This document shows positions 18,436-59,496 of a stretch of DNA of 64,000 nucleotides, one piece after another; within the stretch, counting starts at the first letter, position 1; each line of letters starts with the position of its first letter. The translations under genes were made by a program, and so were the position numbers. This stretch comes from Botryllus schlosseri (Eukaryota). The notes beneath the pieces were generated by a model, which saw only the letters and a program-made list of their open reading frames with translations, was not told where the DNA came from and made no database searches. The DNA lies in NCBI GenBank assembly GCA_051294905.1, contig CM119372.1:14200001-14264000 (forward strand). The letters are read 5' to 3'.

Positions 18436-19689
18436 ATGGCTGGAGTTCCATCAGCTTTCAGCCAAGTGGACCTCGCTCCCCCAGTTGTTGTTTTTAAAGT
18501 TCGTGATGAGTATCTTGCTGACACTTCCGAGCAAAAAATCAATTTGAGCGTTGGAGCATATCGTGATGATCAAGGCGAACCATGGGTGTTACCTGTCGTG
18601 CGCTCAGTAGAAGCAGAGATGGCCACTGATCCTACATTGAATCACGAATACCTTCCTATTACGGGATTGCCTCAGTTTTGTAAAGTAGCAACAGAACTTA
18701 GCCTTGGATCAGATAGTGCTGCTATTACCGACAACCGAGCAGCCGGTGTGCAAGCTTTGAGCGGCACAGGAGCACTCAGGATTGCTGCTGAATTCCTCAA
18801 ACAGTTCTATCAAACGCATGACCCAGGTACAGTAGTCTGCTACCCTGATCCAACATGGGGTAATCATGACAAAATTTTCATGTATGCTGGGTTTGATGAT
18901 CGTCGAAAGTATCGGTATTGGGATGCCAAAAATCGCTGCCTTGATCTTGATGGTATGTTGGAAGATCTCGAGAAGTTACCTGAATATTCAATTGTCATAT
19001 TGCATGCGTGTGCCCATAACCCAACTGGTGTAGACCCCACAAAGGATCAGTGGTCTCGCATTGCAGATGCTTGTAAAAGTCGAAACCTATTTCCGATTTT
19101 CGATTCTGCATACCAAGGATTTGCCTCTGGAGACCCAGACGAAGATGCTTGGAGCATTAGAATGTTTGAAAAAGCTGGTTTCGAATTATTTGTATGCCAG
19201 TCGTTTGCAAAGAATTTTGGCCTTTACAATGAGAGAGTGGGTAACCTTGTCATGGTGCTTAAAGACTCTGATAGTCTCCTTCGTGCAAGGTCACAGATGG
19301 AATTGATCATCCGAGGGATGTACTCCAATCCACCATGTCATGGAGCAAGAGTGGTTGCAACAGCTCTTTCAAATCCGGCCTATTATTCACAGTGGAGAGA
19401 TAATGTCCGCACCATGTCTGATCGCATCAAGAGATTACGTCAAGCTACATACGAAAAGCTGAAGATACTAGGTACACCTGGCAAATGGGATCACATCGTG
19501 AAACAAATAGGAATGTTCAGCTATACTGGTCTGAATCCAGCTCAATGCGAGTTTCTTTCCAAGCAGAAGCATATCTATTTGCTGAAGTCTGGACGAATTA
19601 GCATGTGTGGACTGACCGATGCAAATCTGGACTATTTCGTGCAGTCTCTTCATGAAGCAGTTGTATCTGTATGTGAGAATAAATTATAG
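18436..19689 (+). CDS. GOT1: Cytosolic aspartate aminotransferase, single-exon CDS (417 aa)
   Basis: NLSVGAYR, LHACAHNPTG, FDSAYQGFASG, PLP-lysine motif QSFAKNFGLYNER, QIGMFSYTGL, SGRI; no mitochondrial presequence; first ATG in aaaATGg context. Confidence 0.95.
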   Translation: MAGVPSAFSQVDLAPPVVVFKVRDEYLADTSEQKINLSVGAYRDDQGEPWVLPVVRSVEAEMATDPTLNHEYLPITGLPQFCKVATELSLGSDSAAITDNRAAGVQALSGTGALRIAAEFLKQFYQTHDPGTVVCYPDPTWGNHDKIFMYAGFDDRRKYRYWDAKNRCLDLDGMLEDLEKLPEYSIVILHACAHNPTGVDPTKDQWSRIADACKSRNLFPIFDSAYQGFASGDPDEDAWSIRMFEKAGFELFVCQSFAKNFGLYNERVGNLVMVLKDSDSLLRARSQMELIIRGMYSNPPCHGARVVATALSNPAYYSQWRDNVRTMSDRIKRLRQATYEKLKILGTPGKWDHIVKQIGMFSYTGLNPAQCEFLSKQKHIYLLKSGRISMCGLTDANLDYFVQSLHEAVVSVCENKL

Positions 19690-20016: not shown

Positions 20017-20398
20017 TAGGTTACCGTATTTCGGGATTTTGAATAATTTACAGACATACAATTCCAGAGTAAAATCCGGAAAAATTGGTAAATTTATTGG
20101 CAGTTTGTAGTTGGTTAACTATAAAAGGTCATTTTTCCGACTCCACTTCGGAAATACACACTTTTGTCGAATTCTTCGTTAGCTGACTAAAAAAGACGGT
20201 CAACTTTCTGGCTCAACACGCAACATACCCGGCGGAAAGTTACTTGAGTGCTGAATTCCTATATCTCAGTGGAATTTTTTAACATACATTCAACCAAAAT
20301 TTTCAAAAAAGAGGACATTTGGGCGTCCTCCAAGGACTCTTTCAAAAATTACAAAAAAGAGGACAAATCCTCTTAAAAGAGGACGTATGATAACCCTA
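20017..20398. mobile_element. TAGGGTTACC-family hAT-like MITE
   Basis: taggttaccgta ... tatgataacccta, gaggac repeats, TSD gtgttgtg/ttgttgtg; other fragments at ~14170, ~16483, ~51706. Confidence 0.8.
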
Positions 20399-20949
20399 TT
20401 GTTGTGGGTTCTGGTGCGGCGAGATTGTGCAGTGTATCTCAACCCAGAATTACATGGGATCGTTTCGACCGACAAAGCGTCTTGAAGAATTACTTGGCAA
20501 TTGGGCATCCATCTCCTCGATCGGTAGGTTGTAGAACGTGGATTCTTCTCTACTCACGGTCAGGTAAGACCAAAACTTGCATGGTTGTACAACTGGTATC
20601 CACGGCGTTGCAAGGAAGCCGGTGGTGCTGACACATTATTAACCTTAGCATCTCCATGGACCCAGCAGGTGGAGATTAACTGCCGTCCGTCACGCAATTG
20701 CGCGTTTCGGAAAGACCGGTGCAGCAATGAACAACACAAAGCTCGCGCTATGTGCAAAGCGCGAAAGCCAGAGCTGATCAGTGGCGGTAGCAGTAACTTT
20801 ACGAAGTAATACGAGAGACGAGGTAGCTGAATATTGATTGCATGACGTCGCAGAAATTTAGCTTTGTTTGCGGTGCCGCGTACAAGTTAGTCAGTGTTTC
20901 AAATCGTTAAACTTTGCGGCGCGCAACATTGCCGAGTGACTGGTAGGAT

Positions 20950-23900
20950 ATGACTTCCGAAGATCAACTTCAAATCACTGCTTGCAATTCCAGCGAACTT
21001 CGTAATGGTGACATACGAGAGGTTTCATTCGGAGAACATGGAACGGCACTGGTGGTGAAATGTAATGATAAAATTTCCGCCATTGGCAGCAAGTGTACAC
21101 ATTACGGCGCCCCGTTAGCGAAAGGTCCTCTCATTGACGGTCGGCTGAGATGTCCGTGGCACGGAGCGTGTTTTAACATTCAAACCGGCGACATAGAAGA
21201 TTACCCGGGTTTAGATAGCTTGCAAGTCTTCACTGCGGAAGAGAAAGATGGTAGCGTCATTGTAAAAGCGCGGAAAGATTTGTTGAAAAATGGGCGCCGC
21301 AGGCAGAAGATGTCATCCTTTACTGATGGGAATGGTGGGCCTATGATATATGTGCCACACCAGAGGTACATATGCAGATATACTTATTTGTTACAGGACA
21401 TGGCGTATTGATTATCGGAGGTGGCGCCACAGCCATAACATGTGCGGAATCGCTACGCCAACGAGGCTATTGCAAAAAGATAATTATCCTCACCAAGGAT
21501 TCCCATCCACCATATGACAGGTAACGTTGCATTCCAAGTCATTCGCAATCAATGACTATGAGCTTGTACCGTCCGTTACCAGAACGAAACTCAGTAAAGT
21601 CATGAATGTGGCCGCTGCTTCCACTTATCTTCGAGAAGAGGCATTTTACAAGGAATATGGGATTACCGTCAAATGTAATTCGGAAGTCACCAAGCTAGAC
21701 ACATCGGCAAAAAGTGTCCGATTGCAAGACGGGAGCAGTGAATCTTATGACAAATTACTTATTGCTACAGGTTTGATTCTTATGCAACTTGTTCAAAATA
21801 TAATATCTGCTATGCAGAGCAAAGCACGCCGTAAGCTCATTTGCCGACTTAATTGTATATATACCGCAGAACCGTTTGTTGCCAAGAATACGTGACCAGT
21901 AGGCATGGCCGCGACAGGATTGATTAGTCTTCTTTCCGTTTCTACTATATGCACTTTCGACAGGCATATTCTAATTATTTCCATAATATAACCAATCGAT
22001 CGATTTACACACGTGGCATTTCAATTACCAGTAACTCACTATAGTGAATTATGTTTTATGAATTTGCTGCTGTTATAATGTGTGTCTTCATCCCGGTCCA
22101 TGCAGCACTATACAAGCTTCCTAAACACAAAAATGGGTATTGGGCTCCCCAAATGGCTGTCTACGTAACGTTGACCCCCATAGCGCGGTTGGACTTCATA
22201 GACCAGTGGTTCTCAAACTTTTTTAGACACGCCCCTTCATGATAGTGAAAAATTTCGCGCCCACTTTGTCGTCATATCACAAAATGCAATCAAAATGCTA
22301 CGATTCCAACAGCTAGTTTGATGGCATGGAAGGTTATGACAGTTGATGAGATAATTCTCAAATATGAAATTCGGACTGTAGACAAAGCAACAACCACGAA
22401 ATGGAGGTAAATCGCGCCATGCGCGAAAAAAATTTCATTTGACGTCAGCTCCGCGACACCCCTCCCCCCCAGTTGATAACCACTATCATAGACTATAGAG
22501 AATTGGGAATTTTTTCTCATTACTCGAAATCACCAAGAAAATGATCCCAATTCCGTGTATTGCAATCTGTGTACTTATCTCCGAGAAACGTCTTATATTG
22601 CTACCCATTAAAACTACGTCCTGGAAACAAGACTGCCACGCAGACAGGAGGGGAGCAAGTAGAGCGCTTGCTCTTGCTTTGAACATCGTGACGTCACTGT
22701 GCGTACGTCTGATTTCGCCTCACTGTTGAAAATTTTGTCCGCTTCCGTATTATATTGCAGGATTATAGCTAATATATAATTGCTACACTCAACTCAAAAC
22801 CAAACGAATCAAGTAGGCCTAGTCAATTTTACCGTCGATAATAGGACACCTATTATAACCGCATAGTATGTTATGTATCGGCAACTAAGCCATGCCGTCA
22901 TCGCTGTCCGCATCCACGTGAAATTTCTAAATCGCGTGCATTGTGAGGCGGGACACCACGAACCGTCACTGTGATGCGACAGTAACATAACATATTATAT
23001 GCGACACGTTGATTATTGTGGCAGTCACTTTTATATTTGTTTCTTCCACCGACAGGCTCGACCCCGAGAGTGCTTCCGATTCCAGGATGGGGATTGAAAA
23101 ATGTTTTCGTTCTTCGTAGCCATGACGACGCGTCAAAGATATTCCAAGGGGTAAGGGTACGGGCTCAATCGTGGTGGTGATACCATTCGCGTCATTTGAT
23201 TGATACCCGCGCGTTTAATCATTCTCGCGAGTATAACTATGCAACCCATCCGCCTACCTTATACATTCAATATGACAGGCCATCTACTCTGTAATCGAGA
23301 AGTCGTATATTTACTAGGAATGGTGTGAACGCGAGGTTCACGTTCGCGTTCTGTGTGTCAACCTCGGAAATTTAGAGGTTCGTGTTCACAACAGAACCTT
23401 GGTAGGTTCTGCACTGTGAACCTTTTGGTAAATTGTTATTTTCACTCCATTATAAGATCTTTGGCTCAAATTTATTGCATTTCAACTGCGGGCCACTCCA
23501 TGCATGGTGCTGGCAGCATAAAAAATCAACGCTTAACGAGCATGCACCATGCACCTTGACAACCTTAAAAGTTTTAGTTGCTTTGTTGCAAAAATTTTCT
23601 CGGAATAACCAGCTTTCCGTTTGTGAATATTTAGTGACTATCTGCTGTGAGCTTGAACCGCAATCACACAAGATCACGAGCGATATACGTAGTCAGCGAA
23701 TGATGCTTATTCATTCAACCAATCAATGATATTGATATCGTCTTCTGATGTAAAAAATCGAACGGGCGTACGGGGTCAATCTTGACTTCATATCTTTACT
23801 GTATCATTAAAACCAAATCCGTGCGATTAAGGTGCTTGCTACTGCTGCATAACTTGTTGTTCGTGTATCGGCAGCGAGCATTGAAACCAGTTGTACACTC

Positions 23901-26608
23901 TGCTCAATATCAATGTAGCAATACTCAGACTCCGAACACATTGTCCGGTCTGGCTAAGACCGTTAAGGCGTAAGCTTATATTCGTCCTCGTCGAAATTGT
24001 TGGCAAAGCGACGGAATGTATTGATTTTACGCAATTATTATATCCTTTGATTACCGCTGTTGATACATTTAGCGACGTTTAACACGCCGATATGTACTTC
24101 AGCATTGTGGCATTATGTGGACCGAGTCTTCGCTAGGTATCGTGTACATTAATATAGGCTATCACTTCATTGGAAGATAGGGTTGGAATTAGCAATATGA
24201 CGTCACGTGACGTCACGAGGTTCACGTTCGTGTTCACACAGAACCTTTCAAAAAGGTTCGCGTTCACACGAACCTGAACCTTTCAGAGGTTCACACCATC
24301 CCTAATATTTACCGTATCAGTGTATCTGAGCAAATATCGTGGATTTAAAACCGAAATAGTGACCAATGACCTTGATTGTCGTAGCGGAGTTAATACGTTT
24401 ACTATCCGTCGACAGGCGGCGGGAAAAAACGTTGTAGTCATTGGTGCATCCTTCATCGGAATGGAAGTTGCTTCCAGCCTGGCAGAGGCAGCAGAATCTG
24501 TCACGGTTTGCGAATATTTCAGCGCTCCATATCAAACCGTTCTTGGTTCTGAGGTGAGAACTTGGCCACGTAATTCAATCCCGACTAAACTCCAGCTATT
24601 CTCTATGCTGATTCAGGTTGGGGAAGTGTTTCAGACAATGCACGAAGAAAGGGGAATTGTATTCCATATGAATGCGTCTGTTACCGAGTTAAAGGGGAGT
24701 GAAGGTGCGGTGCAACATGTCGTCTTGAACAACGGTACTCTTCTCAAGGTATGACTGGACTGGACAATTAGACAGCGTTGCTACTCATAACCCGTGTAGC
24801 AAAATTGATATAATATATCCTTTTCGTTCTAAGTCAGACAAACGTGGATCAGCATAAATCTGTGCAGTTCAAGCAACTGTTCTGAGAACCGTTGATGTGT
24901 CTGCTTGCGTTCTATAGCTCCGTCATCTCATGAGCCGTGGCAACAGACCATTCTGGTTAGCGCCGTAAATTGATACATGTACAACCAGTGGGCCTCATAA
25001 AAATTCAAGTAGAAGGTTTGGCAATAATCGGAGTTTCTTTTATTCTACATATTCTCATTTAGACGCTTACTCCTCACGCGACTGTCTGTACCATACGCTT
25101 ACGCTATTGCCACTGTTTTCACAGGCAGACATTGTTATTGCTGGCGTAGGCGTTATTCCAGCCACGAAATTTCTCCAAAATTCAGGCGTTGAACTAGATG
25201 CACGCGGGTACGTGCACGTTAATAAATACTTGGAGACAAATGTCAAAGATGTGTATGCGGGCGGTGATATTGCTGTTTTTCCGTTAAAGTAAGTATCTCC
25301 CATCCAGTCAACCCGAATTTGATATCCACAGCCACTCTTTTCGTGTTCGATTTGTCACCTTTTTATGCTATTTTTTGCGTAGAATGCGGTCATGGGAGCC
25401 CGCTAACGTTCAACATTGGCAAATGGCACACTACCACGGAAGAGTCGTTGGCATGAACATGGCATCAGCGAAATCGACAGAGGCCTCTTCCGTTCCATTT
25501 TTCTGGAGCAGTCTCGGGCCCGGCAAGAATATACGTTATGCTGGTAAGTGAAATAGATAGTAGTCACTTGTCTTTTTATGTCATATCCAATTACTTATCA
25601 TTCAGTATGCATGCCTCTTATTTACATGTTCTTGGAGGCAAAATTTTGGTCAGGAAGTTTGCATAGTTGGCATCTGTCAAACTGCAACTGATATGATTTG
25701 GCAATTTTAAAATATAGCGATAAAAACAACGATGTGGAAAGTGACGTGATACCTAACAACAGAATGCGACAATATCTGAACTTGCCAAACTAGAAAGCAT
25801 CAGCTTTAATTTAGATTTTGGGTATAGTAGACCTATATGCTATTATCGATGATGTGATAAAAATTTTATTTTCAGATTTTGACTGGCCTCAAAGATTCCT
25901 AGAAGTTCTAGAAATCCCTGACTGGCCTTCATAGACAATTTAAAAACTAGTACGCGTACTCCCAAGGGGCCCACGGACCCCGTTTATGAACCCTAGGCCA
26001 AGGCGAATGACTGATAGAAAGACTGCAGAGAGTCGTTTCCACTTCTATCTTATCATTTTTTCGCATTCTTGTGGGGTTTTGAATTGATAAAAATCGATAT
26101 ATCTGAAAGAATGAATGAATGGAAGATCCGAAATCTCATATTCGATGGCGTCACCAGGAAGTTGCTTAGAAATGATCAGTGGTAAACGGTTCAGACTCGT
26201 TCGTGAAGAGATGATTTTCCCCCTGGCTACGCCACCGCATGCATCTTTCATTGTTTCAGATTTCCGGTCTACATCGGCATGCACTATGACTATGCATTTG
26301 CATAGATGCGGTATAGTATTCACAACACGAAGAACATTCAATCATTTATCATTGTGGACTTGAGATATTTGTACCGTATTGTTCATATTTAGGCTTGTGC
26401 ACGTACGATTTTGTTTTCAGGAAATGGACTCGGCCACGACAGCGTCGTTATTGCTGGCAGCTTGGCGGAAAGAAAATTTTGCGCGTACTATTGCAAAGGC
26501 GACGAAGTTGTAGCTGTAGCGACATATATGATGGATCCTAGGGCCTCGGAGTTGGCTGAAAATTGGCGAAATGGGATCAGATTGCTCAAAAGTAACATTC
26601 CAAAATGA
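20950..26608 (+). CDS. AIFM3: Apoptosis-inducing factor 3-like Rieske/FAD oxidoreductase, 9 exons: 20950-21334, 21397-21520, 21583-21770, 23056-23150, 24416-24553, 24617-24748, 25125-25288, 25383-25543, 26421-26608
   Basis: Rieske CTH...CPWH, IIGGG, PYDRTKLSK, IATGS, VIGASFIGME, YAGGD, HWQMA, VPFFW; all eight introns are GT-AG with compatible phases. Confidence 0.9.
22204..22485. mobile_element. CAGTGGTTCTCAA hAT MITE in AIFM3 intron 3
   Basis: Exact TSD tcatagac; homologous to 4661-4986. Confidence 0.85.
23315..24304 (+). mobile_element. TAGGGATGGTGTGAAC element, copy 2, in AIFM3 intron 4
   Basis: Colinear with 14854-15850; exact TSD atatttac. Confidence 0.92.
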
Positions 26609-27003
26609 AAACGGATGTCGGGAGGCCTGTTTCGATCGTAACCGCACTCGAATAACGATCATATCATTAATACCGTGATGTCATCAATTGCTTAACGGTG
26701 ACATCGCAATAGAATGTGTTATGCATTTCCTGAAAATAGTTCCGCTAGCTTTGCTTATGTGTGACAAGATAAATGTCTTTAGATGACGTTTAATTGAGTG
26801 TTATTCAAGATCACAATGTGTAAATATATATATATATATGCTGAATTGATGATACGCCTACCGGGAGCCGTGTCCGCGCCCATAGTAGTGTAAGTGAGGA
26901 TGGAATGCTGTAAGTTTGCGTAACTGACTGTGTTAGGCAAATATCTCATTCGGCGTGCGTTTTTCTGATAAACACTTTATTTAGATAGCTACATGGTGTC
27001 GGT

Positions 27004-29025: not shown

Positions 29026-29038
29026 GGTCGATCTAAGC

Positions 29039-29110: not shown

Positions 29111-31029
29111 TTCTGAGTAGATTGAGAAAATGCCTGCAATAATTCAGCATATCTCTAACAATTATTGAGATTTCTAGTAAAAAATACATCCATTGAATAA
29201 TCCCTCAACACATCAAAGGTCGAGTATGTTCAAAGGCCTTATCATAACCATCCGACGGCCGTGTTAAAGTGTAATTCTGATCACCATTATGAACAAGTCG
29301 CTGACATTGAAACCGAATTCCAGAAAAGCCCAAAAGTGCACAGTGAGTTCAGATTTTTTATGGAAAAATTGACATAAAGTAGTTATTCACGTAAGCGAAA
29401 ACGACAATGCGAAGCCGTTGCATGCCGTGCACTGTGAGGTTACATAGGGAATGTAATAGTTACACAAAAATGTATTTCAAATATCTATGGTCGCACTGCT
29501 TTATCAGTTTTGACTTTTGACAAAGATTCCTGGCCTCTTGAGAAACCCAAATCGCGATTAAGTAATAATGAAGCAATTCCTATACGTCCGCCTTTATAGT
29601 GAAATCTCTTGCATTCCCCTCAACGCATACGCATGAATACCGCTAGAGTACGACTAAAACAAAGGAAGCATACATATGCCAGCTTATATCGTCGTTAGAG
29701 TCTTATTTTAGCCGTTTATAACTGTTTTCAACCGGTCAATCATCCTTTTTTTGCAATTCCATTGTATGCGAATTAAGGTGTTGCTAGAATAGAACTTCTG
29801 CGATCCGTATTATATTAAAATATACAATTGTATATACAGGCTTGATAACAATGTATACAAGTGAGAAACAAGTGCATGGATTTTGAGGCATCTGCCTAGT
29901 GCCGGATGTCACAGTTTTTCGATATTAATCTTCAGTCGGCCGTTCTTTTTAGACGCTCTTTCCATATTCCATTCGCTTTCATTTCGAGTGCGTTCTTCAG
30001 CGGTCTTTTTGACGCCGTAAAATAGCGACACGGGGGAGGAGCGCAAATGATTGTACTTGATAAGAAATTGAGCAGATGATTGCATATCATTGAATGACCG
30101 TATAGCATTGGCCTTAGCACCCCTTCGTTCCTTGATTTCGCCCCCTTTGTATCAGTGTAACAAAGTCACTGAACTATGACTTTGGGTCGTATAAAAATAT
30201 ACATTCAAATAAACCTTCATTTCTTGATTTTTCCTCCCCCTTCCCGCCTCACCGGTATAAAATTACTGGTAAAATTTAACAAGCTCACTGATTCTGATTT
30301 CTGAAGCAAGCATCAAATCTCTTATCGGAAATATTCACTGAGCTGTATAGTATAGTTTTAAACAACTCTGTGGTAATAACGCTTTTCTCCTGGAGACAGG
30401 TGTTAGGTTGGATTATAGAGGATGTAGTTGGATCACTCAGCAATATGGATCGGATGGAGTAGATTCAGTTCAGAGTTCTTCTTGATGATACTGGAGTTCG
30501 GTGAATACATGCCTGTATTGTACCGGTTGCCGTTTATATTGTTTTGTTACCTTGAATTTGAAATTCGACGGTGAATGAGCTATAGGCCTATGTAGGAATG
30601 TAGCATAGGACTGAACTTGATAACAAAATGTGAGTAATGATGAGTTGATTACTACCGGTAGCTCTGCCTCAGCTCTAGATTTATAGTTTGTACGTTTTCT
30701 GTTGAACGGTACGAAGCAGAACCGATGCGATGGATGCGTTTAGTGTTCAATTTCGGTAGTATGTTAAAACTTTGATGTAGCTTCCATTATGGTATTATTC
30801 AGCTACAATTGAATGTTTCACAAATGCATGCTATTGTGTTAGCCTAGCTCAATCACAAAATTATGCGAGTAATTTCGATATATATTGTGTTTCAGCTTAC
30901 TATCATGCACATAAATAATTGTATTCCACAATTGAACAGGATTGGATGTCTTCCTGGCTGTGATAATCATTGGTATTGATTTCCTATTTGAGCAACAACT
31001 ATATCACAGTATTGAAACAACAGAGAATC

Positions 31030-31905
31030 ATGTGTCTTCAGAGAGGCTGTACCTGCACTTTAAAGTATGCTGGCGGAATTCCCTTGGTTAGTCCATGCTT
31101 GAAGAACATTCTTTTCCTCGCAAACTTCCTGACATGGCTCGTTGGATTTACGATGATTGGGATTGGTGTTTATGCGAAAGTAGAGAAACAATATTCACAC
31201 GGTCTTTCAGAACTTGCAGTCGATCCTGCTACTCCTATTATAATATTTGGATGCTTGGTGTTCTTGGTGACATTCTTCGGCTGTGTTGGCGCTTTAAGAG
31301 AAAATATTTGCATGCTCAAATTTTTCTCCTTTGTGATGGTTTTTGCACTTGTCGTCGAAGTTGGCTGTGCCTTTGCGGCAGTAATTTTGTCTGACAGTTA
31401 TCGTGAAAGTCTGGGAAAGCTGATGTACAAAAGCATAGAGCACTACCGCAATGACGCAGATGTTAATGATCTTGTCGACTGGATGCAAGAAGAGTTCAAG
31501 TGTTGTGGTGTAATTGAACTGAAAGATTGGAGCTATAATGAATACTTCAATTGTGATATTAACAACCCCAGCTTGGAAAGATGTGGAGTTCCTTATTCTT
31601 GCTGCAAAGTAGATGAAGATGCCAATATCACTGATGTAATAAATACGTTATGCGGAATTGGTTTACAGAATTCCGAAGACTCTAATCTATACATATATGA
31701 TCAAGGATGTCTTGATTCTTTTCTATTATGGGTGCATGATCATTTGTTTTACATTTCCTTTTTCTTGGTCGTGCTGGGTTGCATTCCTCAAATACTAGGA
31801 GTCATGATATCAAGAATTCTTATCATACAAATCAATGACCAGTATCGGTTCATCCAACTTGGACTGCTGGTAGATAGCGGCGATATAGAATATTTAGGTT
31901 CATGA
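31030..31905 (+). CDS. TspanC8-subfamily tetraspanin (TSPAN33/5/17-like), single-exon CDS
   Basis: Four TM helices, FFGCVGALREN, CCG, ERCGVPYSCC, eight Cys in the large loop; first ATG at 31030. Confidence 0.9.
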   Translation: MCLQRGCTCTLKYAGGIPLVSPCLKNILFLANFLTWLVGFTMIGIGVYAKVEKQYSHGLSELAVDPATPIIIFGCLVFLVTFFGCVGALRENICMLKFFSFVMVFALVVEVGCAFAAVILSDSYRESLGKLMYKSIEHYRNDADVNDLVDWMQEEFKCCGVIELKDWSYNEYFNCDINNPSLERCGVPYSCCKVDEDANITDVINTLCGIGLQNSEDSNLYIYDQGCLDSFLLWVHDHLFYISFFLVVLGCIPQILGVMISRILIIQINDQYRFIQLGLLVDSGDIEYLGS

Positions 31906-32883
31906 AGACCATCTCAGCAACTATATTGGTCATCATTACAATATATCAGCTCCATAATCAGCACATTTCAAATTAGCTGCGATAGACTTGCCCTGCAGTT
32001 ATGAGTTACGTATTTATGACTAACTTGATGATTTTATACCGATAACTCTAATGCACGTTACTATGTAAAAATGTAGCTACTCATTTGGAAGTAGGCCTAC
32101 ACTGTACACAATTCTGTAAAACCCGTTTTTATAAACTTCGGTAACAATAGATACTTATATGTCGAGATTCCTTAAACTATATCCGCATCATTGAAGGCTT
32201 TATAATTCCTATTGGCGTCTCTTGCATATGGATACCAGCCTAATGAATATGGTCATGCTCAACTCTTTCCCGGCAGTGACATTCTTAATTGCTTATTGTC
32301 CGTTTCACACAGTGCTCATCTATTATGTTGATTGCATGCAGTTTGTGGATATTCAATAATCATTGCACTTTCATTTTCAGTACTAGTAAGTAGTACTTTG
32401 ATACAGTGCAGACAACTTTAATATTTTCGAATTCACCATGTAGACGTTTTCTAGTTCATGCACTTCTATTTCAACTAGCTCAATTTGCACAATATAGTCG
32501 GAAGAACTGATTTGTTGATAAATTGCGATACATTCTAGACAGCACAGTACAGTTAATTCTGCTTTGAGAGTCTATGAAAAGCGTCAAAACATCGAAACAA
32601 CTATCCATGCTGCATCGCTTACTGTAAGGAAGTGTCTGCAACAATACTACATTGCAATATCAAATTTATTATTTCTTGTTTGGACCGAGTAGAAATGAAT
32701 AATAGAAAAAACATTCCATATTGAATCTCCCACTGAGAGACTTAAGCATAGAAATAGGGCATTGAAAGACCACACGAGCACGACATTGCTTCAATATGTC
32801 CCTGCACTAATATAGCATTAAAGTCCTCCCTGGACATATGAAGTGGTCAAGGGCAAGATAAAGTTCGATGTGGTAGTGTTATG

Positions 32884-43859: not shown

Positions 43860-46777
43860 ATTCCCGAATTACCCGCTCGAACGTCCGTATTTGCTGTTTA
43901 GGGTCATTTACATTGAAGAAAAAATTCCTTACGAAATTTGCACGGACTACGATCTGAATGTCAAAGATTGCGAAGAGCGATGGCTGGAAGTTGATCACCC
44001 AATTGGAATTCACAAATCTTTTCTTGTGGCCGTATTATACCGTCATCCCACGAAAAACATGAACCAATTCGCAAAAGCGTTGGAGCGCTCACTGGACAAA
44101 GTCAACAGCGACAAAAAGATGTGTTTCATTGCGGGAGATATTAAAACACAAAGGCAACGCATACTCCAACGCCGTCAAATCCGCCGGTCTCTACCAAATG
44201 ATCACCGAGGTTACACGCATAACCGAAAAGTCAAGGACTTTGATCGACCACATATATACCAACTCGCGCGACATGGAAATCATTCCATTTGTCATTTCGG
44301 CAAAAATCAGTGACCACAACCATATTGGTTTTCTATCACAAGAACAACAAAGGACACCCCCCCCCCCCCCGAAACATATCACCTCTGCAGACGACGAGAA
44401 GCGCTCGATGATGCCGCATTCAATCAATTTAAAACATCAGCCATCCCCCACATCTCCGTAAACAACTTTGACGAAAAATTTGTTGAGTTTATGTCTGCTA
44501 TCAAATCACTGCTGGAACAATTTGCACCTCTACAGCGCCTTTCGAGAAGTCAAAGAAAATTGAAGCGAAATCCGTGGATAACCACAAAGCTGATTCAACT
44601 CATCCGTAAACGTAACCGGTGGCATAACCGAATAGACACCAAGAACTGCCCAGAACATGAACGAGAAAGATTTCGACGTTTCAGGAATCGCACCGTGCAT
44701 CTCATTTCCAAGGCAAAAGCAAAGTACAATGAGAGATTTTTCAACAGACACATAAAAGACACTCGAAAAACATGGTCAGTACTTAGAACTCTCTCCGACA
44801 TCGAAAACAAGGCCATAAGTCTGTTTCGGAAATTGTGAATTCGGATACCGGAAACAAACTTTCAGACTCGGCGGCCATCGCGAATCACTTCAATGAATAT
44901 TTTTGTAACGTATAGGCCCAAATATTGCTTCTTCTATTACAAAACCTGTGTCGGCCAGGTCAGAGGTGAGATCGATATCCCAGTCAATTGTGCTTGAACC
45001 TACGACCAAATACGAAGTAGAAGTAGCCATCCACAAACTGAAATCGCACAAGGCCGACGGCTATGACCAAATCCCATCATGGTTTTTAAAAATGATAAGC
45101 CTACATATCGGTCAATATATGGCCCATTTTTTCAACTTCATGATAGAAAATGGAGTCTACCCAAGCTATCTAAAAAAAGCCAGAGTAGTCCCTGTACACA
45201 AAGCTGGGGATAGAACTAATGTCACCAACTACCGTCCGATATCCGTTCTCCCATGCATCGGGATTGTATTCGAAAAGTTGCTCCTCTCCCGCCTGTCCTC
45301 ATTCCTCGCCAAAATGTCTGTCATTTCCCCTCAACAATTTGGCTTCCGAAACACACCAAACCGCTCATGCCCTCCTAACAGTGGCCGAACAGTACTATGA
45401 TATCTCAGAGAAGCGAAATGTGGGATGTAGCATTTTTCTCGACCTAAAAAAAGCGTTTGACTGCGTAGATCATAAAATTCTCATCTCGAAATTGGCGCGT
45501 TACGGACTTCGGGGCCCACAACTTGAGTTCATGAAAAGTTACCTCACTGGACGCCAACAAATGGTTGCGATCTCAGACACCTTGTCCTCTTCTCACCCGG
45601 TGACCTGTGGTGTGCCCCAGGGCTCAGTACTTGGACCGGTCCTTTTCACCTTATATGTCAACGACATTTTTGAAACCTCCTCATTGAACACCACACTGTT
45701 CGCTGATGATACTCACCTCCTCTCTTCCGCATCTTCGACGGCAGAGCTGGATGCCCTGACTGGTGACCAAATGCCCAAAGTCCATGAGTGGACGGCCCAG
45801 AACAACCTTTGCATAAACGCCTCGAAATCGCAATTGCTGACAGTAAATTCAAAAAATAACCTAACCGTTAATATCGCTGGTCAGCCCGTTTCCAACACAA
45901 ATATCTTGGAGTTTTACTGGACTCGAACATGTCCTGGAAGAGTCATATTCAGTCCCTAGAAACTAAATTATCACCGAAGTGCGGCCTGTTTTACAGCCTT
46001 GGGCGCTTCATGCCAGCATGGGTTCTTCTGATACTCTTTAAATCCTTAATCCAATCGAAGTTACATTATGGCATCCTCTGTTGGGGGGCTGCCAGTAAAA
46101 CTGCACTCAAGCCACTGCAGAAACTACAGCATAAAGTACTCCGAATCATAGCTAGGGCTCCAAAGGGGCCTGGCTGCCCATCCAATAAGTCGCTGCTGAA
46201 GAGATTTGGCGTCCTAAACATAGAAGATATGCGGAAACTAGAAATCGCCAAGTTTATGTATCAGTTTCACTGCGGTCGTTGCCCCGAATATTTCAATGAC
46301 TTCTTTACCTCTGAATCAAAAGCGCACAAGTACAACACACGCGCGTCCACGTCGTCCAAATATCATATGATCGACCGAAAAGATCATCGCTCCATCAAAT
46401 ATGCCGGACCTGATGTGTGGAACAGTATCCCGCCGGCCATCCGACAGTCGACGAGCATGTCCACATTCAAGTCGAAATACAAGCAATTACTACTAAATAA
46501 ATACAGTCCATCCTCAAGATTACCGGACCACAACTGACCTATCGATCTTGCTTCCCATGACATGCCGCCCTATTTCTTGTCGCATTTTTCTATACAATCT
46601 TCTTTACTTTCATTCAGTGTGCATGCCTACTCTTTACATCGCCTAGGCCAAGGTGGGTGTCAGATTCCATAGACTACTCCTTGTCGCTTCGACATCTTCC
46701 TGTCTTTTCATTGTATCGCATTTTTTGTGGTGTATTGAACTGATAAAATTGCTAATAAACCAATGATGATGATTATG
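43860..46777 (+). mobile_element. 5'-truncated, frameshifted non-LTR retrotransposon (CR1/L2 group, Crack/Daphne-like): APE plus RT
   Basis: YRHP, AGD, TR...SRTLIDHIY, SDH (APE); NYRPIS, FLDLKKAFD, GVPQGSVLGPVLF, FADDT (RT); WNSIP C-terminus; (GAT)n tail; 5' boundary approximate. Confidence 0.92.
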
Positions 46778-49291: not shown

Positions 49292-50161
49292 TCATGATTT
49301 GAATACATGGACACACTTAACAATGAATTGACGACAAATGGGACATTCATTTAGTCGCTTTCCACATGCTGTACAGGTTGTCATGTGTCCACAATCAAGT
49401 AACACGCAATCAATAGGTTCGTCCCAGCATATCTTGCAGATATTGCCGTCATCAGAGTCCACTTGTGACTTCATCTTATCATTGTACAAGCTGCGAACTC
49501 TATCCTGCAGCTCATTTTTCTCGACACAGCCCTTGTAGTTGATGAAATTATCATATAGGATTTGTTTAAGTTCACGGGATGTAAGTAGGACGATTTGATC
49601 AGTTGATGTTATGTCAGCAATGATAATTTTATTCGCCAATCCTGTTGGAATAGGACGTTTCACTGAGGTCTCGTCGTTACTAGTAGATTGCAAGTCTGGT
49701 GGTTGTCCCGTGTCCCCACTGCTGAAACCAAATCCACTGTTATGAGAAGCTTCCTCTGTTTCAGGATTTGATGTTGAATTCTGTTGAGTACTTGGTTCAG
49801 AAGTGTTTTGATTCTGTGGTAGATCCCTTCTTTGATGGGTGCTTGCACTTGCTGAACTTATTACTGGATTCTCACTACTAGTGACATTGTTTGGTTGGCT
49901 TCTCAGGATCACCAACTGGACAAGTTCATTCTTCTCATTATACAAGTGAACTGGAGTCCCTCGCACTGTTAAATAAAGCTTGAGATCCTTGATTTTGACG
50001 TTCATCAAACAGTCGTACTTCCACTGACAATCCAGCACATTTGCACAGGCCAAACATCGCTTCCGTACGATACAAGTAGTGCAAAAGTAATTAGTGCAAT
50101 AGTCACACTTTTTCTTCCACTTCAATATCGAAAAGTTGGCATTACAGTAAAGACAAGGCAT
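49292..50161 (-). CDS. RNF34: RNF34/RFFL (CARP)-like E3 ubiquitin ligase, single-exon CDS
   Basis: N-terminal FYVE-like Cys cluster, two SAP-like motifs (VKIKDLKLYL, RELKQIL...GCVEKNEL), C-terminal RING CKICWDEPIDCVLLDCGH...CPICRQ...HVFKS; RNF34 and RFFL cannot be told apart. Confidence 0.85.
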   Translation of the reverse strand: MPCLYCNANFSILKWKKKCDYCTNYFCTTCIVRKRCLACANVLDCQWKYDCLMNVKIKDLKLYLTVRGTPVHLYNEKNELVQLVILRSQPNNVTSSENPVISSASASTHQRRDLPQNQNTSEPSTQQNSTSNPETEEASHNSGFGFSSGDTGQPPDLQSTSNDETSVKRPIPTGLANKIIIADITSTDQIVLLTSRELKQILYDNFINYKGCVEKNELQDRVRSLYNDKMKSQVDSDDGNICKICWDEPIDCVLLDCGHMTTCTACGKRLNECPICRQFIVKCVHVFKS

Positions 50162-53404: not shown

Positions 53405-53610
53405 GTTAGGGGTGTTACATGTTGTATCTACATTTTACTGCTATACTTTTAATGTTATATAGTAGAGGATGTTGGAGACTTTAATTTCAGTGATGTGATT
53501 GACCAGACCATAGTTAAAACTTTGTGATGAAGCCTGTAATGGATCGGATATTATATCAGCTCATTTCCAACTTGGTGTTTTCTATAAACTTCACAGCGTA
53601 ATAAGCTAGA

Positions 53611-56600
53611 ATGTCGGACAGAACTGCTCCTGACGTTCAACTCCAGTTAGACTGGGTATATGGATATCGTGGGCATCAATGTAGAAACAACTTGTATTAT
53701 ACGTCGACACGAGAGATCGTATATTTTGTTGCTGGAGTTGGAATTGTTGTCGACCTCAAACGACAACGTCAAAGATTCTTTCTTGGCCATGATGATGACA
53801 TCATATCGTTAACCATACATCCCGATGGTTTGCATGTTGCTACCGGTCAAGTGGGTAAGGCTCCATACATATGTATATGGGATCCTTGCACTATCAAGAC
53901 TGTATCCATTCTAAAAGATCAACACACTCACGGAGTATCCGCCTTATCCTTCAACAAGTCAGCTGACCGCTTGGTTTCCGTCGGTTTGGATCCTAACAAT
54001 TTGATTGTCGTGTGGGATTGGCGAAAGGGGCGAATGCTATCAACTGCCAAAGGGCATAGTGATAGAATATTTGATGTTGGTTGGAGCGCACAGGATGCCT
54101 TTGTCACATGTGGTGTGAAGCATGTGAAATTTTGGAGTTTATCCGGAAATTCGCTGACCAATAAACGCGGCATATTTGGGAAGACTGCTGAAATGCAGAC
54201 AGGTTTATGTGTCAGGTGCCACAACGGAGGCTTAACTTACACAGGCATGCTGTCGGGTGACGTTTATCTTTGGGAAGGAAATATTTTGCAACGGATTATC
54301 AGCATCTGTCATGTAGGCGGGGTCTTTACAATTCACTCGTCTGTTGATGGTTTCGCTACGGGAGGTAAAGACGGAAATGTTAAACTTTGGGACGTCGCTT
54401 TCAATCCCTTGACGTGTATAAATCTCAAAAAGAGCGCCGTCGGCTATAAAGGCATATCGATGAGAGCCGTATGTTGGCAAGGCACCCATGTTCTCGCTGG
54501 TACTCGTGACGGAGAGGTATTTGAGATCTTGGTCCGTGACCCAGCACACCCTAACGTCATCACAAACGGGCACGGTGAAGGTGAAATGTGGGGGCTTGCA
54601 GTTCACCCAAAGCAGCTCTTTGTCGCCACAGGGAGTGACGATAAAACTGTGAGAATTTGGAGTATTCGTGATCGCGCTCTTCTGGTCGCTTGCAGCTTAC
54701 CTGCGCCAGTCCGGTCTTGCACACTCTGGGGCGACCTTGTAGCTGTCGGATGCATCGATGGTCTCGTGAGGGTCTTGAAGAGCAAAGATACATCGACGGT
54801 AGTGGAAATACACGAAAGGAAAGAAGCGGTCCATGAAATTCGATTTTCCCCTAACGGCACTTATCTGGCTGTAGCGAGTAATGATAACTTTGTCGATATA
54901 TACAGCGTGCAGCAAAAATACCATAAAGTTGGTGTGTGTGGTAAATCATCAAGTTTCATCACGCACATCGACTGGTCAGCAGACGAACGTTATCTGCAAA
55001 CTAATGACGGCGCTGGCGAGCGTCTGGTTTACTCCATGCCGAGAGGTTCTCACGTCACCGAAGCTGATTTGATCAACGCCGTCAAATGGCATTCTTGGAC
55101 TGGTGTGCTAGGCGGCGAGGTCGATGGAATCTGGCCGAAGTACTCTCAGATCAACGACATCAACACCGCTTGCGCCGATAGGAAGCTAGGAGTGGTCGCG
55201 ACTGGAGATGACAGCGGCTTGGTGAAGTTGTTCAAGTTTCCCTGCGTCAAAAAGGGAGGAAAGTTTCGTAAGTACGTGGGACATTCGTCTCACGTGACGA
55301 ACGTCCGTTTTACTCCGGATTCTCAGTGGCTGATGTCGGCCGGTGGTGCCGATCACGCTTTGTTTCAATGGAAAGTGGTGAACCCGGCTCAATCGGGTGA
55401 TGTTCCAGATGGATTGCAACCGCAAGCTTCCGAGGCATACTTGGACTCCAACAGCGAAGACAGCGATTCGTCGCTATCCAGCGTCGCTGAACTAGATTCC
55501 GAGGTGGAGAGAGAAAAGGAAGCGACCTATGAGCGCTCGGTCGATAAGAGAGAAGTGAAAAGAGCAAAATCACGCCCGAGCGGGTCGAACAAACGTGACG
55601 CTGCGCCTGCAGAAACTAGTTTGGCATTAGACTTTGTTTTTGGGTACAGAAGTCACGATTGTAGGGACAATATATTCTACACCGAGAGTGGTGATGTTTT
55701 GTATCACGTAGCGGCGTTGGGTATTGTAATGTCTCGCGAAACCCGTGCGCAAAGCTTTTACACCGGTCACGACGACGATATATTGTGTCTAGCCCTGCAC
55801 CCTTGCAAGAATTACGCCGCTACCGGCCAAGTCGGCAAAAGTCCGCAAATACACGTTTGGGACGCCAGCACCATGAAGACGATATCGATAGTGCAAGGGT
55901 TTCATTCACGAGGTGTTTGCAGCGTCAACTTTTCCCACGACGGCAGAAAGCTAGCATCAGTCGGTCTGGATAACGATCATTCCCTGGCTGTATGGGATTG
56001 GAAAAAAGGAGAACTATTAGCGAGCGCCAGAGGACACCAAGACAAAGTGTTCTCCGTCAAGTTCGACCTTATCAATAGCGAAAAACTGGTCACAGTCGGA
56101 ATCAAGCATATTAAGTTTTGGCATCATGTCGGCGGCGGTCTGACGAATAAGCGAGGTGTGTTCGGAAACGCGGGCAAGCCCGACACTATTCTTTGTATCA
56201 CGCAGGGAAACCAAGCCGGTGTCGTGTTCACAGGCGGAGCAAACGGACAGGTTTATACATGGAACGGAAACACTTTGTCTAGAGCTCACAAGGCTCATGA
56301 TGGGCCTTGTTTCGCAATGCACGCTTTGGACAAGGGGTTCGTGACAGGCGGTAGAGACGGTGTCATCTCTCTTTGGAATGAGAGATTCGACAACTGTCTC
56401 AAGTCGTACTCTCTCACGAATCAGAGCCTCGCCACGACTGCGTACGGCAGTATGTTGGACGACAATCCGTCGATCCGAGCGGTCACTCTCGGTCACAAAA
56501 AAATTCTCGTAGGAACGAAGAACAGCGAAATCGTAGAGGTTGATAAGGATGGATCCATTACCGTGCTGACGCAGGGCCATTGCGAGGGGGAACTGTGGGG

Positions 56601-59496
56601 TTTGGCTTCACACCCCGTTAAAAGTGAATTTGCGACCGTGTCTAACGACGGCACGGTACGCACGTGGATTGTAGCTGGCGGTGATGGGCAAAGCTATCGA
56701 CATTCTTGCATCTTGGCGAGGCGTTTGCATGTCGGTGGAAAATGCTGCGCTTACTCTCCAGACGGGTCTGCGATAGCGGTTGGCTGTAACGATGGTAGTT
56801 TTGTCGTGGTGAATTCTACGACTCTGGAAGACATGGTGAAGTTTCATCCAAGGAAAGAACCGATATCCGACGTTCGGTTCTCTCCTGGCGCTGGTAAATA
56901 CCTGGCTGTCGCTTCTCACGACAATTTTGTCGATATCTACTCTGTGAATGGCAGCAAAAGAGTTGGCGTTTGTAAGGGCGCGTCAAGTTACATCACTCAC
57001 ATCGATTGGGACGAATCGGGAAAATTGCTTCGTGTCAACAGCGGCGCTAAAGAACTTCTGTTCTTTGAGGCGCCTAGAGGAACCCGTCAGACTATCAGCG
57101 AAGATGCTAACATCGCATGGGCCACCTGGACAGGCGTGCTGGGCAAGCATTGTGCTGGAATCTGGCCGCCCTACAGTGACGTGACCGACGTTAACGCGGC
57201 GTGTTTGTCGAAGGGGCAACAACTCGCTACTGGCGACGACTTGGGGCTCGTAAAGCTGTTTGCGTTCCCCGTTCTCAACAAACACGCCAAATTCAAAAAG
57301 TATACAGGCCATAGCGCTCACGTTACAAACGTCCGATGGAACTACGATGGGACTCTTTTGGCTTCTGTTGGTGGCGGCGACACGGCCTTGTTTATTTGGC
57401 GCAAGAACAGCATCAAGTTGCAGGCCGGTGGCGAGGATTATCTCGGCATACCGACCGACGATGTCCCGGTGTCTGCAGTCGGACTACGTTATCACGGCGA
57501 GAGCGAAGACTCCGACACCGATTCAGAAGAGGAAGGAGGCTATGACAGCGACGTCGCACACGAGAAGAATATGGATTACGTCGATAAAATTTACAAGGCA
57601 CGTGATATGAAGGGCGTGAAGCTGCATAAGGAGAGTAGTGGGAAATCGGAACCGCTCGTGAATCGCGCGTTGAAACAGAATCCCAAACTAAAAACGCGTG
57701 CCGGGCTTGCGTTGAACAAAGTCGGGTCTCTCGCATTGTCGCATATATTTGGATATCGTGGTTTTGATTGTAGGGATAACTTGCATCACGTCAACGAAGG
57801 GATAGTGTATCACGCTGCAGGTGCGTGTATCTATCACAACCTCAGCACATCGCAACAGTCGTTTTACTTGGAACACACTGACGATGTGACAGCGCTATCA
57901 GTCAATAGAAATCAAAAGTATGCAGGAATCGTCGCTTCTGGACAGTTAGGTGAGACTGCTGCCATCCGGGTTTGGGATTTGGAATCTAAAGAAACAAAAG
58001 CGGTATTAAAAGGCCCGCACCGGCGCGGCGTTTGCTCACTCGATTTTAGCGGTTCCGGGAAGGTTCTACTCTCTGTCGGGTTGGAAATGGAACACTACGT
58101 GGCGATTTGGAGATGGCAGGAAGGCCAGATAGCGTGCAAAGTGTCATGCTCGCCACGACGCGTGTTCCGCGCTATGTTTCGCCCCGATTCCGATTTCCAA
58201 TTTGTGTCGGTCGGCGTGAAGCACGTACGTTTTTGGAAGTCTTGCGGAGGTGCCGCTGTGGGGAAACGTGGTGTCTTGGGTGTGATCGGCGAAACAAAGA
58301 TGCAGACTATGTTGTCGATTGCTTTTGGCGCCGGAGACTATACCTTTACAGGCGGTATGAACGGCGATGTGTACGTGTGGAGAGGACGTCAGTTGAACCG
58401 GACCGTACCCCGTGTACAGGATGGCCCCGTCTTCAGCATGTTCACCACTCTTCAAGACGGCTTGATAGTGACGGCCGGCAAGGATAAGAATAAAGAGAAC
58501 GGTTCAATGGTGAAGCTTTGGGATCAGGAGATGCGACGTTGTCGCGAGTTTCTCATCCCATCGAGATGTGCCAAATCTGTGAGCAGAGCGAAAGGCAGGT
58601 TGTTTGTGGGCACCAAAGACAGTCAGGTGTTTGAGATCGACGAAAAGACAGGCGCGTACTCGGCCTTGGTGAGAGGACACGAAGAAGGGTTGCTTTGCGG
58701 AGTAGCGGCGCATCCAACTTCGCACGTGTGCTGCACGGTTTCTAAAGACAAGTCGGCGAGATTGTGGGATTTGAACGAAAGGATTTTGTTGCAGAAGATA
58801 CGCTTGTCCTCCGGAGGCACGGCGTGTGCTTTCAGTGGAGACGGTGCTTATATCGCAGTTGGCATGGAGAACGGTCAAGTCGAGATATATGACGCTAGAA
58901 ATTACGGAGTGGTCGCGACGAAACGCGACCGCGGAGGGCAGATTAACGATCTACGATTCAGTCCGGACTGTGCCATTTTAGCGGTGGCGTCTGCCGATCA
59001 GTGCATCGATTTGTACAAATTTGGAGACTGTTCGCTTCAAAAAGCCGGATACGTCAGAAACGTGACTGCTTTGCAACTGGATTTTGCGACTAGCGAATCT
59101 GTGATTCAGGTCACGACAGCAGAATATGAGAGGCGTGCGTTTCGTGTTCCGGGCGGAGAAGAAGTGACCGATCGATCGGTCGTCGATAAGCTGACCTGGG
59201 ACACGTGGACTTCGACGGTTGGGAATGAGGTGAACGGGATATGGCCCGCGAACGCGGAAAAAGCAGATATCAACACGGCCCACGTCTCTAACGCAGCGAA
59301 TGCTATCGTCACCGGCGATGATAGCGGATTCGTTAAGCTGTTCGACTTCCCGACTAGCGAAAAGTTTGCTCAAAGTGTAAAATTCACCGGACACTCTGCT
59401 CATGTGACCGGTGTCCGATTTCTCTGCGACGACAAGCAGCTGGTGTCCACGGGCGGGGAAGACTGCTGCATTTTCGTGTGGCAATGTCATCCTTAA
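53611..59496 (+). CDS. EML6: Echinoderm microtubule-associated protein-like 5/6 (three HELP-WD40/TAPE units), single-exon CDS, 1961 aa
   Basis: MSDRTAP...WVYGYRGHQCRNNLYY start, three GYR..CR.N HELP motifs, many WD repeats, acidic linkers; full expected length; probably co-orthologous to EML5 and EML6. Confidence 0.92.
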   Translation: MSDRTAPDVQLQLDWVYGYRGHQCRNNLYYTSTREIVYFVAGVGIVVDLKRQRQRFFLGHDDDIISLTIHPDGLHVATGQVGKAPYICIWDPCTIKTVSILKDQHTHGVSALSFNKSADRLVSVGLDPNNLIVVWDWRKGRMLSTAKGHSDRIFDVGWSAQDAFVTCGVKHVKFWSLSGNSLTNKRGIFGKTAEMQTGLCVRCHNGGLTYTGMLSGDVYLWEGNILQRIISICHVGGVFTIHSSVDGFATGGKDGNVKLWDVAFNPLTCINLKKSAVGYKGISMRAVCWQGTHVLAGTRDGEVFEILVRDPAHPNVITNGHGEGEMWGLAVHPKQLFVATGSDDKTVRIWSIRDRALLVACSLPAPVRSCTLWGDLVAVGCIDGLVRVLKSKDTSTVVEIHERKEAVHEIRFSPNGTYLAVASNDNFVDIYSVQQKYHKVGVCGKSSSFITHIDWSADERYLQTNDGAGERLVYSMPRGSHVTEADLINAVKWHSWTGVLGGEVDGIWPKYSQINDINTACADRKLGVVATGDDSGLVKLFKFPCVKKGGKFRKYVGHSSHVTNVRFTPDSQWLMSAGGADHALFQWKVVNPAQSGDVPDGLQPQASEAYLDSNSEDSDSSLSSVAELDSEVEREKEATYERSVDKREVKRAKSRPSGSNKRDAAPAETSLALDFVFGYRSHDCRDNIFYTESGDVLYHVAALGIVMSRETRAQSFYTGHDDDILCLALHPCKNYAATGQVGKSPQIHVWDASTMKTISIVQGFHSRGVCSVNFSHDGRKLASVGLDNDHSLAVWDWKKGELLASARGHQDKVFSVKFDLINSEKLVTVGIKHIKFWHHVGGGLTNKRGVFGNAGKPDTILCITQGNQAGVVFTGGANGQVYTWNGNTLSRAHKAHDGPCFAMHALDKGFVTGGRDGVISLWNERFDNCLKSYSLTNQSLATTAYGSMLDDNPSIRAVTLGHKKILVGTKNSEIVEVDKDGSITVLTQGHCEGELWGLASHPVKSEFATVSNDGTVRTWIVAGGDGQSYRHSCILARRLHVGGKCCAYSPDGSAIAVGCNDGSFVVVNSTTLEDMVKFHPRKEPISDVRFSPGAGKYLAVASHDNFVDIYSVNGSKRVGVCKGASSYITHIDWDESGKLLRVNSGAKELLFFEAPRGTRQTISEDANIAWATWTGVLGKHCAGIWPPYSDVTDVNAACLSKGQQLATGDDLGLVKLFAFPVLNKHAKFKKYTGHSAHVTNVRWNYDGTLLASVGGGDTALFIWRKNSIKLQAGGEDYLGIPTDDVPVSAVGLRYHGESEDSDTDSEEEGGYDSDVAHEKNMDYVDKIYKARDMKGVKLHKESSGKSEPLVNRALKQNPKLKTRAGLALNKVGSLALSHIFGYRGFDCRDNLHHVNEGIVYHAAGACIYHNLSTSQQSFYLEHTDDVTALSVNRNQKYAGIVASGQLGETAAIRVWDLESKETKAVLKGPHRRGVCSLDFSGSGKVLLSVGLEMEHYVAIWRWQEGQIACKVSCSPRRVFRAMFRPDSDFQFVSVGVKHVRFWKSCGGAAVGKRGVLGVIGETKMQTMLSIAFGAGDYTFTGGMNGDVYVWRGRQLNRTVPRVQDGPVFSMFTTLQDGLIVTAGKDKNKENGSMVKLWDQEMRRCREFLIPSRCAKSVSRAKGRLFVGTKDSQVFEIDEKTGAYSALVRGHEEGLLCGVAAHPTSHVCCTVSKDKSARLWDLNERILLQKIRLSSGGTACAFSGDGAYIAVGMENGQVEIYDARNYGVVATKRDRGGQINDLRFSPDCAILAVASADQCIDLYKFGDCSLQKAGYVRNVTALQLDFATSESVIQVTTAEYERRAFRVPGGEEVTDRSVVDKLTWDTWTSTVGNEVNGIWPANAEKADINTAHVSNAANAIVTGDDSGFVKLFDFPTSEKFAQSVKFTGHSAHVTGVRFLCDDKQLVSTGGEDCCIFVWQCHP

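Follow-up and report, generated by a model that had tools for sequence, protein, structure and literature searches.

Five conserved genes within a 64,000-nucleotide stretch of DNA (hereafter, the window) have intact coding sequences without a single intron; the feature is real, and it is a new and strong instance of a process already known in tunicates. We consider it rather likely that these genes are orphan retrogenes, i.e., that each arose by retroduplication and that its parent was subsequently lost. The closest named relatives of the window proteins are ascidian, and in a tree the window EML5/6 gene groups with that of Styela clava with full support; judging from these comparisons, the window genome is that of a stolidobranch ascidian, probably a styelid and possibly a botryllid. 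An exact look-up in the protein collection found none of the six window proteins (0/6). In vertebrates, GOT1, ZZZ3, and RNF34 are multi-exon genes. TspanC8 genes are also described as carrying introns (PMC2650405).

Five uninterrupted coding sequences

GOT1, which encodes cytosolic aspartate aminotransferase, occupies positions 18436 to 19689 of the plus strand (417 aa, counted from the second ATG; the open frame begins at 18385). A TspanC8-type tetraspanin gene (Tspan) is located at 31030 to 31905 (plus strand, 291 aa); the large loop of its product has eight cysteines, and Tspan15 is the best solved match. On the minus strand, ZZZ3 (32884 to 35862, 992 aa) encodes Myb and ZZ domains that match human ZZZ3, and RNF34/RFFL (49292 to 50161, 289 aa) encodes three RNF34/RFFL-type domains. 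Finally, EML5/6 (53611 to 59496, plus strand, 1961 aa) is 70% identical to a 1960-aa Styela protein. All five (5/5) are single-exon coding sequences, and the probability of such frames in random DNA with the window composition is 1e-8 to 1e-54.

The neighboring AIFM3 gene (20950 to 26609, plus strand, 524 aa) served as an intron-bearing control. It consists of nine exons (20950-21334, 21397-21520, 21583-21770, 23056-23150, 24416-24553, 24617-24748, 25125-25288, 25383-25543, and 26421-26609) separated by eight GT-AG introns of 62 to 1285 nt. AIFM3 follows GOT1 on the plus strand after 1.26 kb, and a repeat lies between the two at about 20020 to 20400. Typical scars of retroposition were also sought. 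Runs of at least eight As within 1.3 kb downstream were absent at four of the five genes, with one 8-A run 770 nt after RNF34; direct repeats flanking the five genes (10 to 12 nt) were not longer than those in cross-gene controls (8 to 14 nt), giving no target-site duplication. Such scars are expected to be gone from old copies, and their absence does not discriminate between the readings weighed below. A preliminary description, made from the sequence alone, had reported five full-length uninterrupted open reading frames (ORFs), eight introns in AIFM3, and neither a poly(A) scar nor a target-site duplication; our analysis agrees with it on all of these points.

Sequencing reads were examined over 20 kb of the window containing GOT1, AIFM3, Tspan, and ZZZ3. 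In run X5, which represents a second DNA sample, GOT1 lies in a single contig (18189 to 20020), Tspan and ZZZ3 lie together in another (30425 to 36446), and AIFM3 intron DNA is present in the contigs as well. Since X5 carries GOT1, Tspan, and ZZZ3 unbroken and at a flat depth of 86 to 97, these three genes are not assembly artifacts. RNA reads cover the same three of the five genes, which are thus expressed: the depth in X24 is ~40 to 50 for GOT1 and ~7 for Tspan, and that of ZZZ3 is low, with a pile-up at the 3' end in X22. For the stretch with EML5/6, no RNA samples were listed. Low RNA coverage also appears roughly 1 kb before GOT1 (17200 to 17540), with none in X24 between there and the gene; a sequence resembling a splice donor lies near 17339, and a 5'-UTR exon of GOT1 is possible. 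The tables of read joints and loose ends, which bear on UTR introns, trans-splice sites, and the GOT1-AIFM3 junction, were dominated by repeats.

We also observed that GOT1, Tspan, ZZZ3, and RNF34 are depleted of CpG (observed/expected, 0.58 to 0.71; GC3, 0.37 to 0.40) and that the ratio is 1.0 to 1.3 in EML5/6 and in 9 of 10 other unbroken genes. This contrast suggests a locally methylated domain that would stop before EML5/6.

Ancestral introns, a second AIFM3, and missing parents

The loss was dated in one of the five genes, EML5/6. A metagenome scan with an ascidian EML5/6 alignment yielded 58 loci, 5 of which (L096, L097, L098, L100, and L101) are of ascidian origin, with L098 placed beside Phallusia (support, 96). 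In this Phallusia-like ascidian, EML5/6 contains 31 distinct introns, which lie from residue 281 to residue 1920, a range that spans most of the protein but not all of it. We mapped 13 more loci that match fish or non-chordate proteins best; the other 40 are transcript-like, distant, or short and were left unmapped. Among the 31 introns, 21 occur at the same codon and in the same phase in non-tunicate loci. The window gene has none of the 31, and at 29 of these sites there is no indel within 4 residues. With one-by-one loss at 0.5 per intron, the disappearance of all 31 would have a probability of 5e-10. Since EML5/6 is intron-rich in the Phallusia-like ascidian, the introns were lost after the phlebobranch split, and the precise and total form of the loss points to a spliced RNA template. 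An intron-rich EML5/6 in a Phallusia-like ascidian, with all 31 introns lost in the window lineage, is new here. This comparison of intron positions with a related species, together with the census described below, upholds the earlier proposal of lineage-wide, gene-by-gene loss. A comparison of the six window proteins with the flanks of the metagenome EML loci gave no match; these flanks do not reach far, and gene order in ascidians is scrambled.

AIFM3 adds a second line of evidence. The genome holds another AIFM3, which is intronless (contig C11, 18931265 to 18932962; the genome search gave the wrong strand for it), is 57% identical to the window AIFM3 over 516 aa, and is colinear with it across all eight intron sites. 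In a tree, the two copies form a group with Styela (100/99), apart from Ciona and Phallusia. The AIFM3 duplication therefore postdates the split from Ciona and Phallusia, so at least some of the events are later than that split. As far as its sequence tells, an intronless copy beside a living spliced one is the intermediate expected from retroduplication, although the pair could also be a DNA duplicate that was converted afterwards. A third AIFM3-like locus, a Rieske exon, was noted at C2:24951992 (L123).

We then looked for intron-bearing parents across the genome (495.5 Mb in 219 contigs, with the window on C2), using protein searches that score the best candidates only. For GOT1, the only other match among the scored candidates is GOT2, itself one 427-codon frame. 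The EML5/6 search returned exon-sized EML pieces on C6 and unrelated WD40 genes, with no parent among the scored candidates, and at the DNA level EML5/6 is single copy in the genome. The conserved 438 residues of ZZZ3 have no other match among the scored candidates, and the other scored matches of RNF34 are RING domains only. The other scored matches of Tspan are tetraspanins at 24 to 48% identity; they include split family members (25 to 48%), any of which may be its closest paralog. Hence, the search for intron-containing paralogs that had been suggested earlier found no parent of any of the five genes among the best-scored candidates.

Intronless genes across the genome

The genome-wide frequency of intronless genes was estimated by a census based on Pfam families, with one row per gene and with "unbroken" meaning a domain in a single frame. 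Unbroken domains were found in 5/10 CCT/Cpn60, 4/8 MCM, and 5/16 proteasome genes, and in 23/45 DEAD-type genes from the best 58 of 102 candidates. The housekeeping total is thus 37/79 (~47%), a value that leans high given the DEAD sampling and the fact that a gene with an unbroken domain may still have introns (e.g., PWP2); the three fixed families alone (CCT/Cpn60, MCM, and proteasome) give 14/34. The remaining family members are split into many exon-sized pieces, making the distribution near-bimodal, and the fixed families are at the expected gene number (e.g., 8 CCT subunits and 8 MCM genes), with each gene either unbroken or split. Further unbroken genes that we met are GOT2, WDR70, and PRPF4, as well as WDR36 and CFAP251 as far as their loci reach. 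The frame lengths given by the search were exact in 15 long-frame cases read as DNA but wrong for several split matches (CCT4, 775 vs 445 read; three more loci lacked such a frame).

Other families show far fewer unbroken genes: ~8/42 kinesins, 1/~16 myosins (best 65 of 134 candidates, counted by eye), 3/~30 ion-channel loci (best 150 of 189 candidates, counted by eye), and 1/21 dynein heavy chains. The single unbroken dynein, DYNC2H1, is one 4301-codon ORF (C3:34514997-34527899; L120, L121) with a coding sequence of 12.9 kb, and the other 20 dynein heavy-chain loci are many-exon. Ribosomal proteins, whose gene names were assigned from the Pfam family and the translation, behave differently again. 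None of the seven cytosolic genes is intronless (RPL3, RPL4, RPSA, RPS3A, RPL7A, RPS12, and RPL30 are all split), vs all three mitochondrial ones (MRPL3, MRPL4, and MRPS2, each a single ORF; P=0.008) and vs the housekeeping total (P=0.018). Since 0/7 cytosolic ribosomal-protein genes are intronless, abundance does not predict intron loss. In Ciona, 71/76 ribosomal-protein genes are reported as non-trans-spliced and 3/79 as located in operons (PMC1488885).

Against this background, the window is ordinary. At a rate of 0.47, finding five of six genes intronless has P=0.08, and five of eight has P=0.30; we therefore rejected the idea of a special cluster, with which the preliminary description had begun. 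Its further argument, that five retrocopies within 41 kb are unlikely and so point to gene conversion, loses its force both for this reason and because the intronless AIFM3 paralog fits retroduplication. Its depiction of a transposon-rich, non-compact genome is accurate (495 Mb, repeat-rich, with a young LINE family). The proposed all-or-none pattern holds insofar as families are close to bimodal and fails for CCT4, with two introns in its 3' third, and for PWP2, with at least one intron after codon 560. Likewise, the zero-versus-many distribution of introns that had been anticipated is approached in CCT/Cpn60, MCM, and proteasome genes, and near-intronless genes depart from it; two proteasome genes and RPL4 consist of two pieces each.

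Two families were left out of the census: USP, in which most whole-domain matches belong to a uniform weak class of 770 to 820 bp that is repeat-like, and AAA, in which the best 20 of 136 candidates were scored. The dozens of weak, uniform 770- to 820-bp USP-like domains lie in long frames on many contigs and are probably borne by mobile elements. The ratio of unbroken to split genes is uneven by contig (C6, 8:1; C11, 0:7; C3, 1:6; permutation P=0.011), a weak observation, as it was spotted by eye first and later families put intronless genes on C11. In addition, CCT4 and the intronless CCT8, which belong to one complex, lie tail to tail ~1.4 kb apart (C9:21.386-21.394 Mb; L034, L035, L037). 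At C17:2639820-2696153, four kinesin genes whose motor domains are unbroken stand in tandem at spacings of ~16 to 23 kb; three of them have identical scores. For PIKfyve (C13:2940718; L038), the reported frame is 2156 codons, 1208 of which were read without a stop.

Several single-exon genes precede a same-strand neighbor closely. The intronless PSMA1 lies ~0.64 kb (stop to start) before the split PSMA2 on the same strand (C6:26574800-26579300; L125), and the single-exon PRPF4 lies ~0.24 kb before an RRM ORF. From their arrangement, these two and, more loosely, GOT1-AIFM3 can be described as operon-like pairs headed by a single-exon gene. A second proteasome pair, at C3:35.48 Mb, is head to head. 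Among 14 intronless loci with scanned flanks, one had a neighbor exon recognizable by Pfam within ~1.5 kb. No relict spliced-leader (SL) or shared upstream motif rose above shuffles in 22 upstream regions, and acceptor-like sites before the start codon (6/19) were not enriched (P=0.14; 74/300 shuffles were equally high for the same test).

Proposed retroposition, alternative explanations, and known systems

If the window genes are indeed retrogenes, LINE machinery would have reverse-transcribed their spliced mRNAs and inserted the copies at new sites. A possible source of reverse transcriptase, judged by its domains, is a young non-LTR (LINE) element with a frameshifted copy at 43831 to 46560 (plus strand) that carries an RT domain (Pfam RVT_1); its family has 3034 genome candidates, and among 40 that were scored, the best copies are 95 to 99% identical and progressively 5'-truncated. 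Each gene copy would then be expressed from a borrowed promoter, a step that may be easier in ascidians because SL trans-splicing would tolerate a copy inserted behind a promoter and ahead of the next gene while still freeing the mRNA of that gene, yielding an operon with a single-exon first gene. The intron-bearing parent would subsequently be lost, as its absence from our searches indicates, and poly(A) tails and target-site duplications would erode with age. Repetition along the stolidobranch lineage would replace roughly 40 to 50% of the sampled housekeeping genes, with genes under special control (cytosolic ribosomal proteins, ion channels, myosins, and most dynein heavy chains) mostly keeping their spliced originals.

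We favor such retro-replacement because the loss in EML5/6 is total and precise, no parents were found, families are near-bimodal, and the intronless AIFM3 is dispersed, and also because single-exon genes come first in tight pairs, ribosomal genes are spared, and a young LINE is present. Against it count the near-intronless genes, for which partial conversion is as easy an explanation as later intron gain, and DYNC2H1, whose 12.9 kb would require a reverse transcript of unusual length in both RNA models. The lack of insertion scars and of a common leader-like motif, the unenriched acceptor-like sites, and the single close neighbor among 14 scanned flanks count against it as well. Moreover, macrosynteny is described as generally conserved among Botryllus, Styela, and Ciona (10.1101/2024.05.29.594498), which argues against wholesale random relocation, since relocation should dilute it. 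In its boldest form, the proposal is that, after the phlebobranch split, the lineage retro-replaced close to half of its housekeeping genes from mRNAs of up to 13 kb, with trans-splicing enabling copies to settle between promoter and gene and so to form operons, and with genes that need their own 5' end or enhancers being spared; this extension is possible but doubtful.

Alternatively, cDNA of spliced mRNA may have recombined with its own locus, removing the introns in place in one long tract or a few. This would suit the precise loss in single-copy genes, the genes in which one or two introns persist, and the conserved macrosynteny just mentioned; it makes a new promoter unnecessary, and the same mechanism has been suggested for Oikopleura (PMC4122922). 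It nevertheless predicts many partly purged genes, whereas the families approach bimodality, and the heaviest loss among the mRNAs of highest abundance, whereas 7/7 cytosolic ribosomal-protein genes keep introns. For EML5/6 and DYNC2H1, it further requires tracts of 5.9 and 12.9 kb, respectively, without one intron left, and it leaves unexplained both the dispersed intronless AIFM3 copy and the surplus of single-exon genes at the head of Ciona operons (PMC2760879). On the whole, we regard removal in place as unlikely. It is quite improbable that the intronless state is mostly old, common to all ascidians, and merely inherited here: EML5/6, the one of the five genes compared, is intron-rich in a Phallusia-like ascidian, and AIFM3 was duplicated after the split from Ciona and Phallusia. 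Such an origin would accord with the single-exon genes of Ciona (15% outside operons and 38% inside; PMC2760879), with a full-length GOT1 (P0011), sister to that of Clavelina, on a 330,895-bp ENA contig, and with GOT1 of a close relative (P0242) on a 10,981-bp Logan contig; these long-contig records hint at unbroken genomic ORFs and an older loss in GOT1. Least probable of all, and very much so, is that the five are ordinary retrogenes with missed parents or mRNA-like sequence misassembled into the genome. The searches score best candidates only and the assembly may be incomplete, but the same searches do recover exon-sized pieces of other family members, and the fixed families reach their expected gene number; misassembly is largely refuted for GOT1, Tspan, and ZZZ3 by the second DNA sample, which holds them unbroken at single-copy depth.

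Retroduplication with parental gene loss has been proposed in Ciona by Kim et al. 2014 (Dev Genes Evol 224:255), as cited in PMC5408686 and PMC5803294. Judging from these citations, both cases involve tunicate genes without any intron whose intron-bearing copy is sometimes kept and sometimes gone; ours differs in the ascidian order, in the family-level census, and in cases of up to 4301 codons. As published work on tunicates already describes the basic phenomenon, the surprise is limited. The Ciona proposal reportedly rests on seven genes. In Ciona operons, 60% of the 5'-most genes are single-exon, a pattern left unexplained in the available text of Satou et al. 2008 (PMC2760879). Here, too, single-exon conserved genes often come first in a same-strand pair before a multi-exon gene (GOT1-AIFM3 and PSMA1-PSMA2), but Ciona genes are described as abutting directly, whereas our putative pairs have stop-to-start gaps of 0.24 to 1.26 kb. 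The Ciona percentages and 37/79 come from different methods and are not like-for-like, and they do not establish a larger scale here.

The draft genome of Botryllus schlosseri, similar in size and repeat-rich, also has a very large intronless fraction, with ~45% of predicted genes intron-less (Voskoboynik et al. 2013, PMC3699833); the available text mentions retroviral genes among these and is silent on conserved housekeeping genes and on where ancestral introns lay. For Styela clava, the number of intron-less genes is reported to be lower than in Ciona (PMC7540406). Single-exon copies replaced multi-exon parents among mammalian orphan retrogenes and in amphioxus SYCP1 (PMC5470649, PMC5803294), with 25 human cases described vs a large share of housekeeping genes here. 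Symbiodinium is likewise a trans-splicing organism, in which ~23% of genes are estimated to have passed through mRNA (PMC5585692), but dinoflagellate retrogenes are described as keeping a relict spliced leader that acts as a promoter, unlike the 22 upstream regions that we inspected. Runaway retroposition is a recognized hypothesis for intron loss (PMC3342872). In the styelid and botryllid literature, with subscription papers and supplements lying outside our search, we found no paper that presents a census of housekeeping genes, describes EML5/6 or DYNC2H1 as such cases, or notes the exceptional behavior of ribosomal-protein genes.

Most animals lose introns slowly and bit by bit, and a retrogene rarely takes the place of its parent. 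In the present case, genes change state as a whole, even a dynein of 4301 codons, in a non-compact genome. If the boldest form of the proposal is true, no larger retro-replacement of core genes would be known in an animal, and retro-replacement via trans-splicing would explain why single-exon genes so often come first in tunicate operons. How trans-splicing, the origin of operons, and retroposition are connected can be tested directly, and because ascidian chromosome assemblies still reveal the chordate linkage groups, in-place intron loss can be tested against move-and-replace on many genes.

Two further features of the window were noted. The last coding piece of a membrane-anchored protein (60615 to 60941, minus strand; no Pfam match) converges on EML5/6. 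A gene for a secreted LRR protein (2266 to 6896, minus strand) has two coding pieces ~3.4 kb apart; the gap holds two related, oppositely oriented ORF fragments (3287 to 3871 and 4993 to 5466) that have no Pfam match and presumably resemble a Penelope-type endonuclease.
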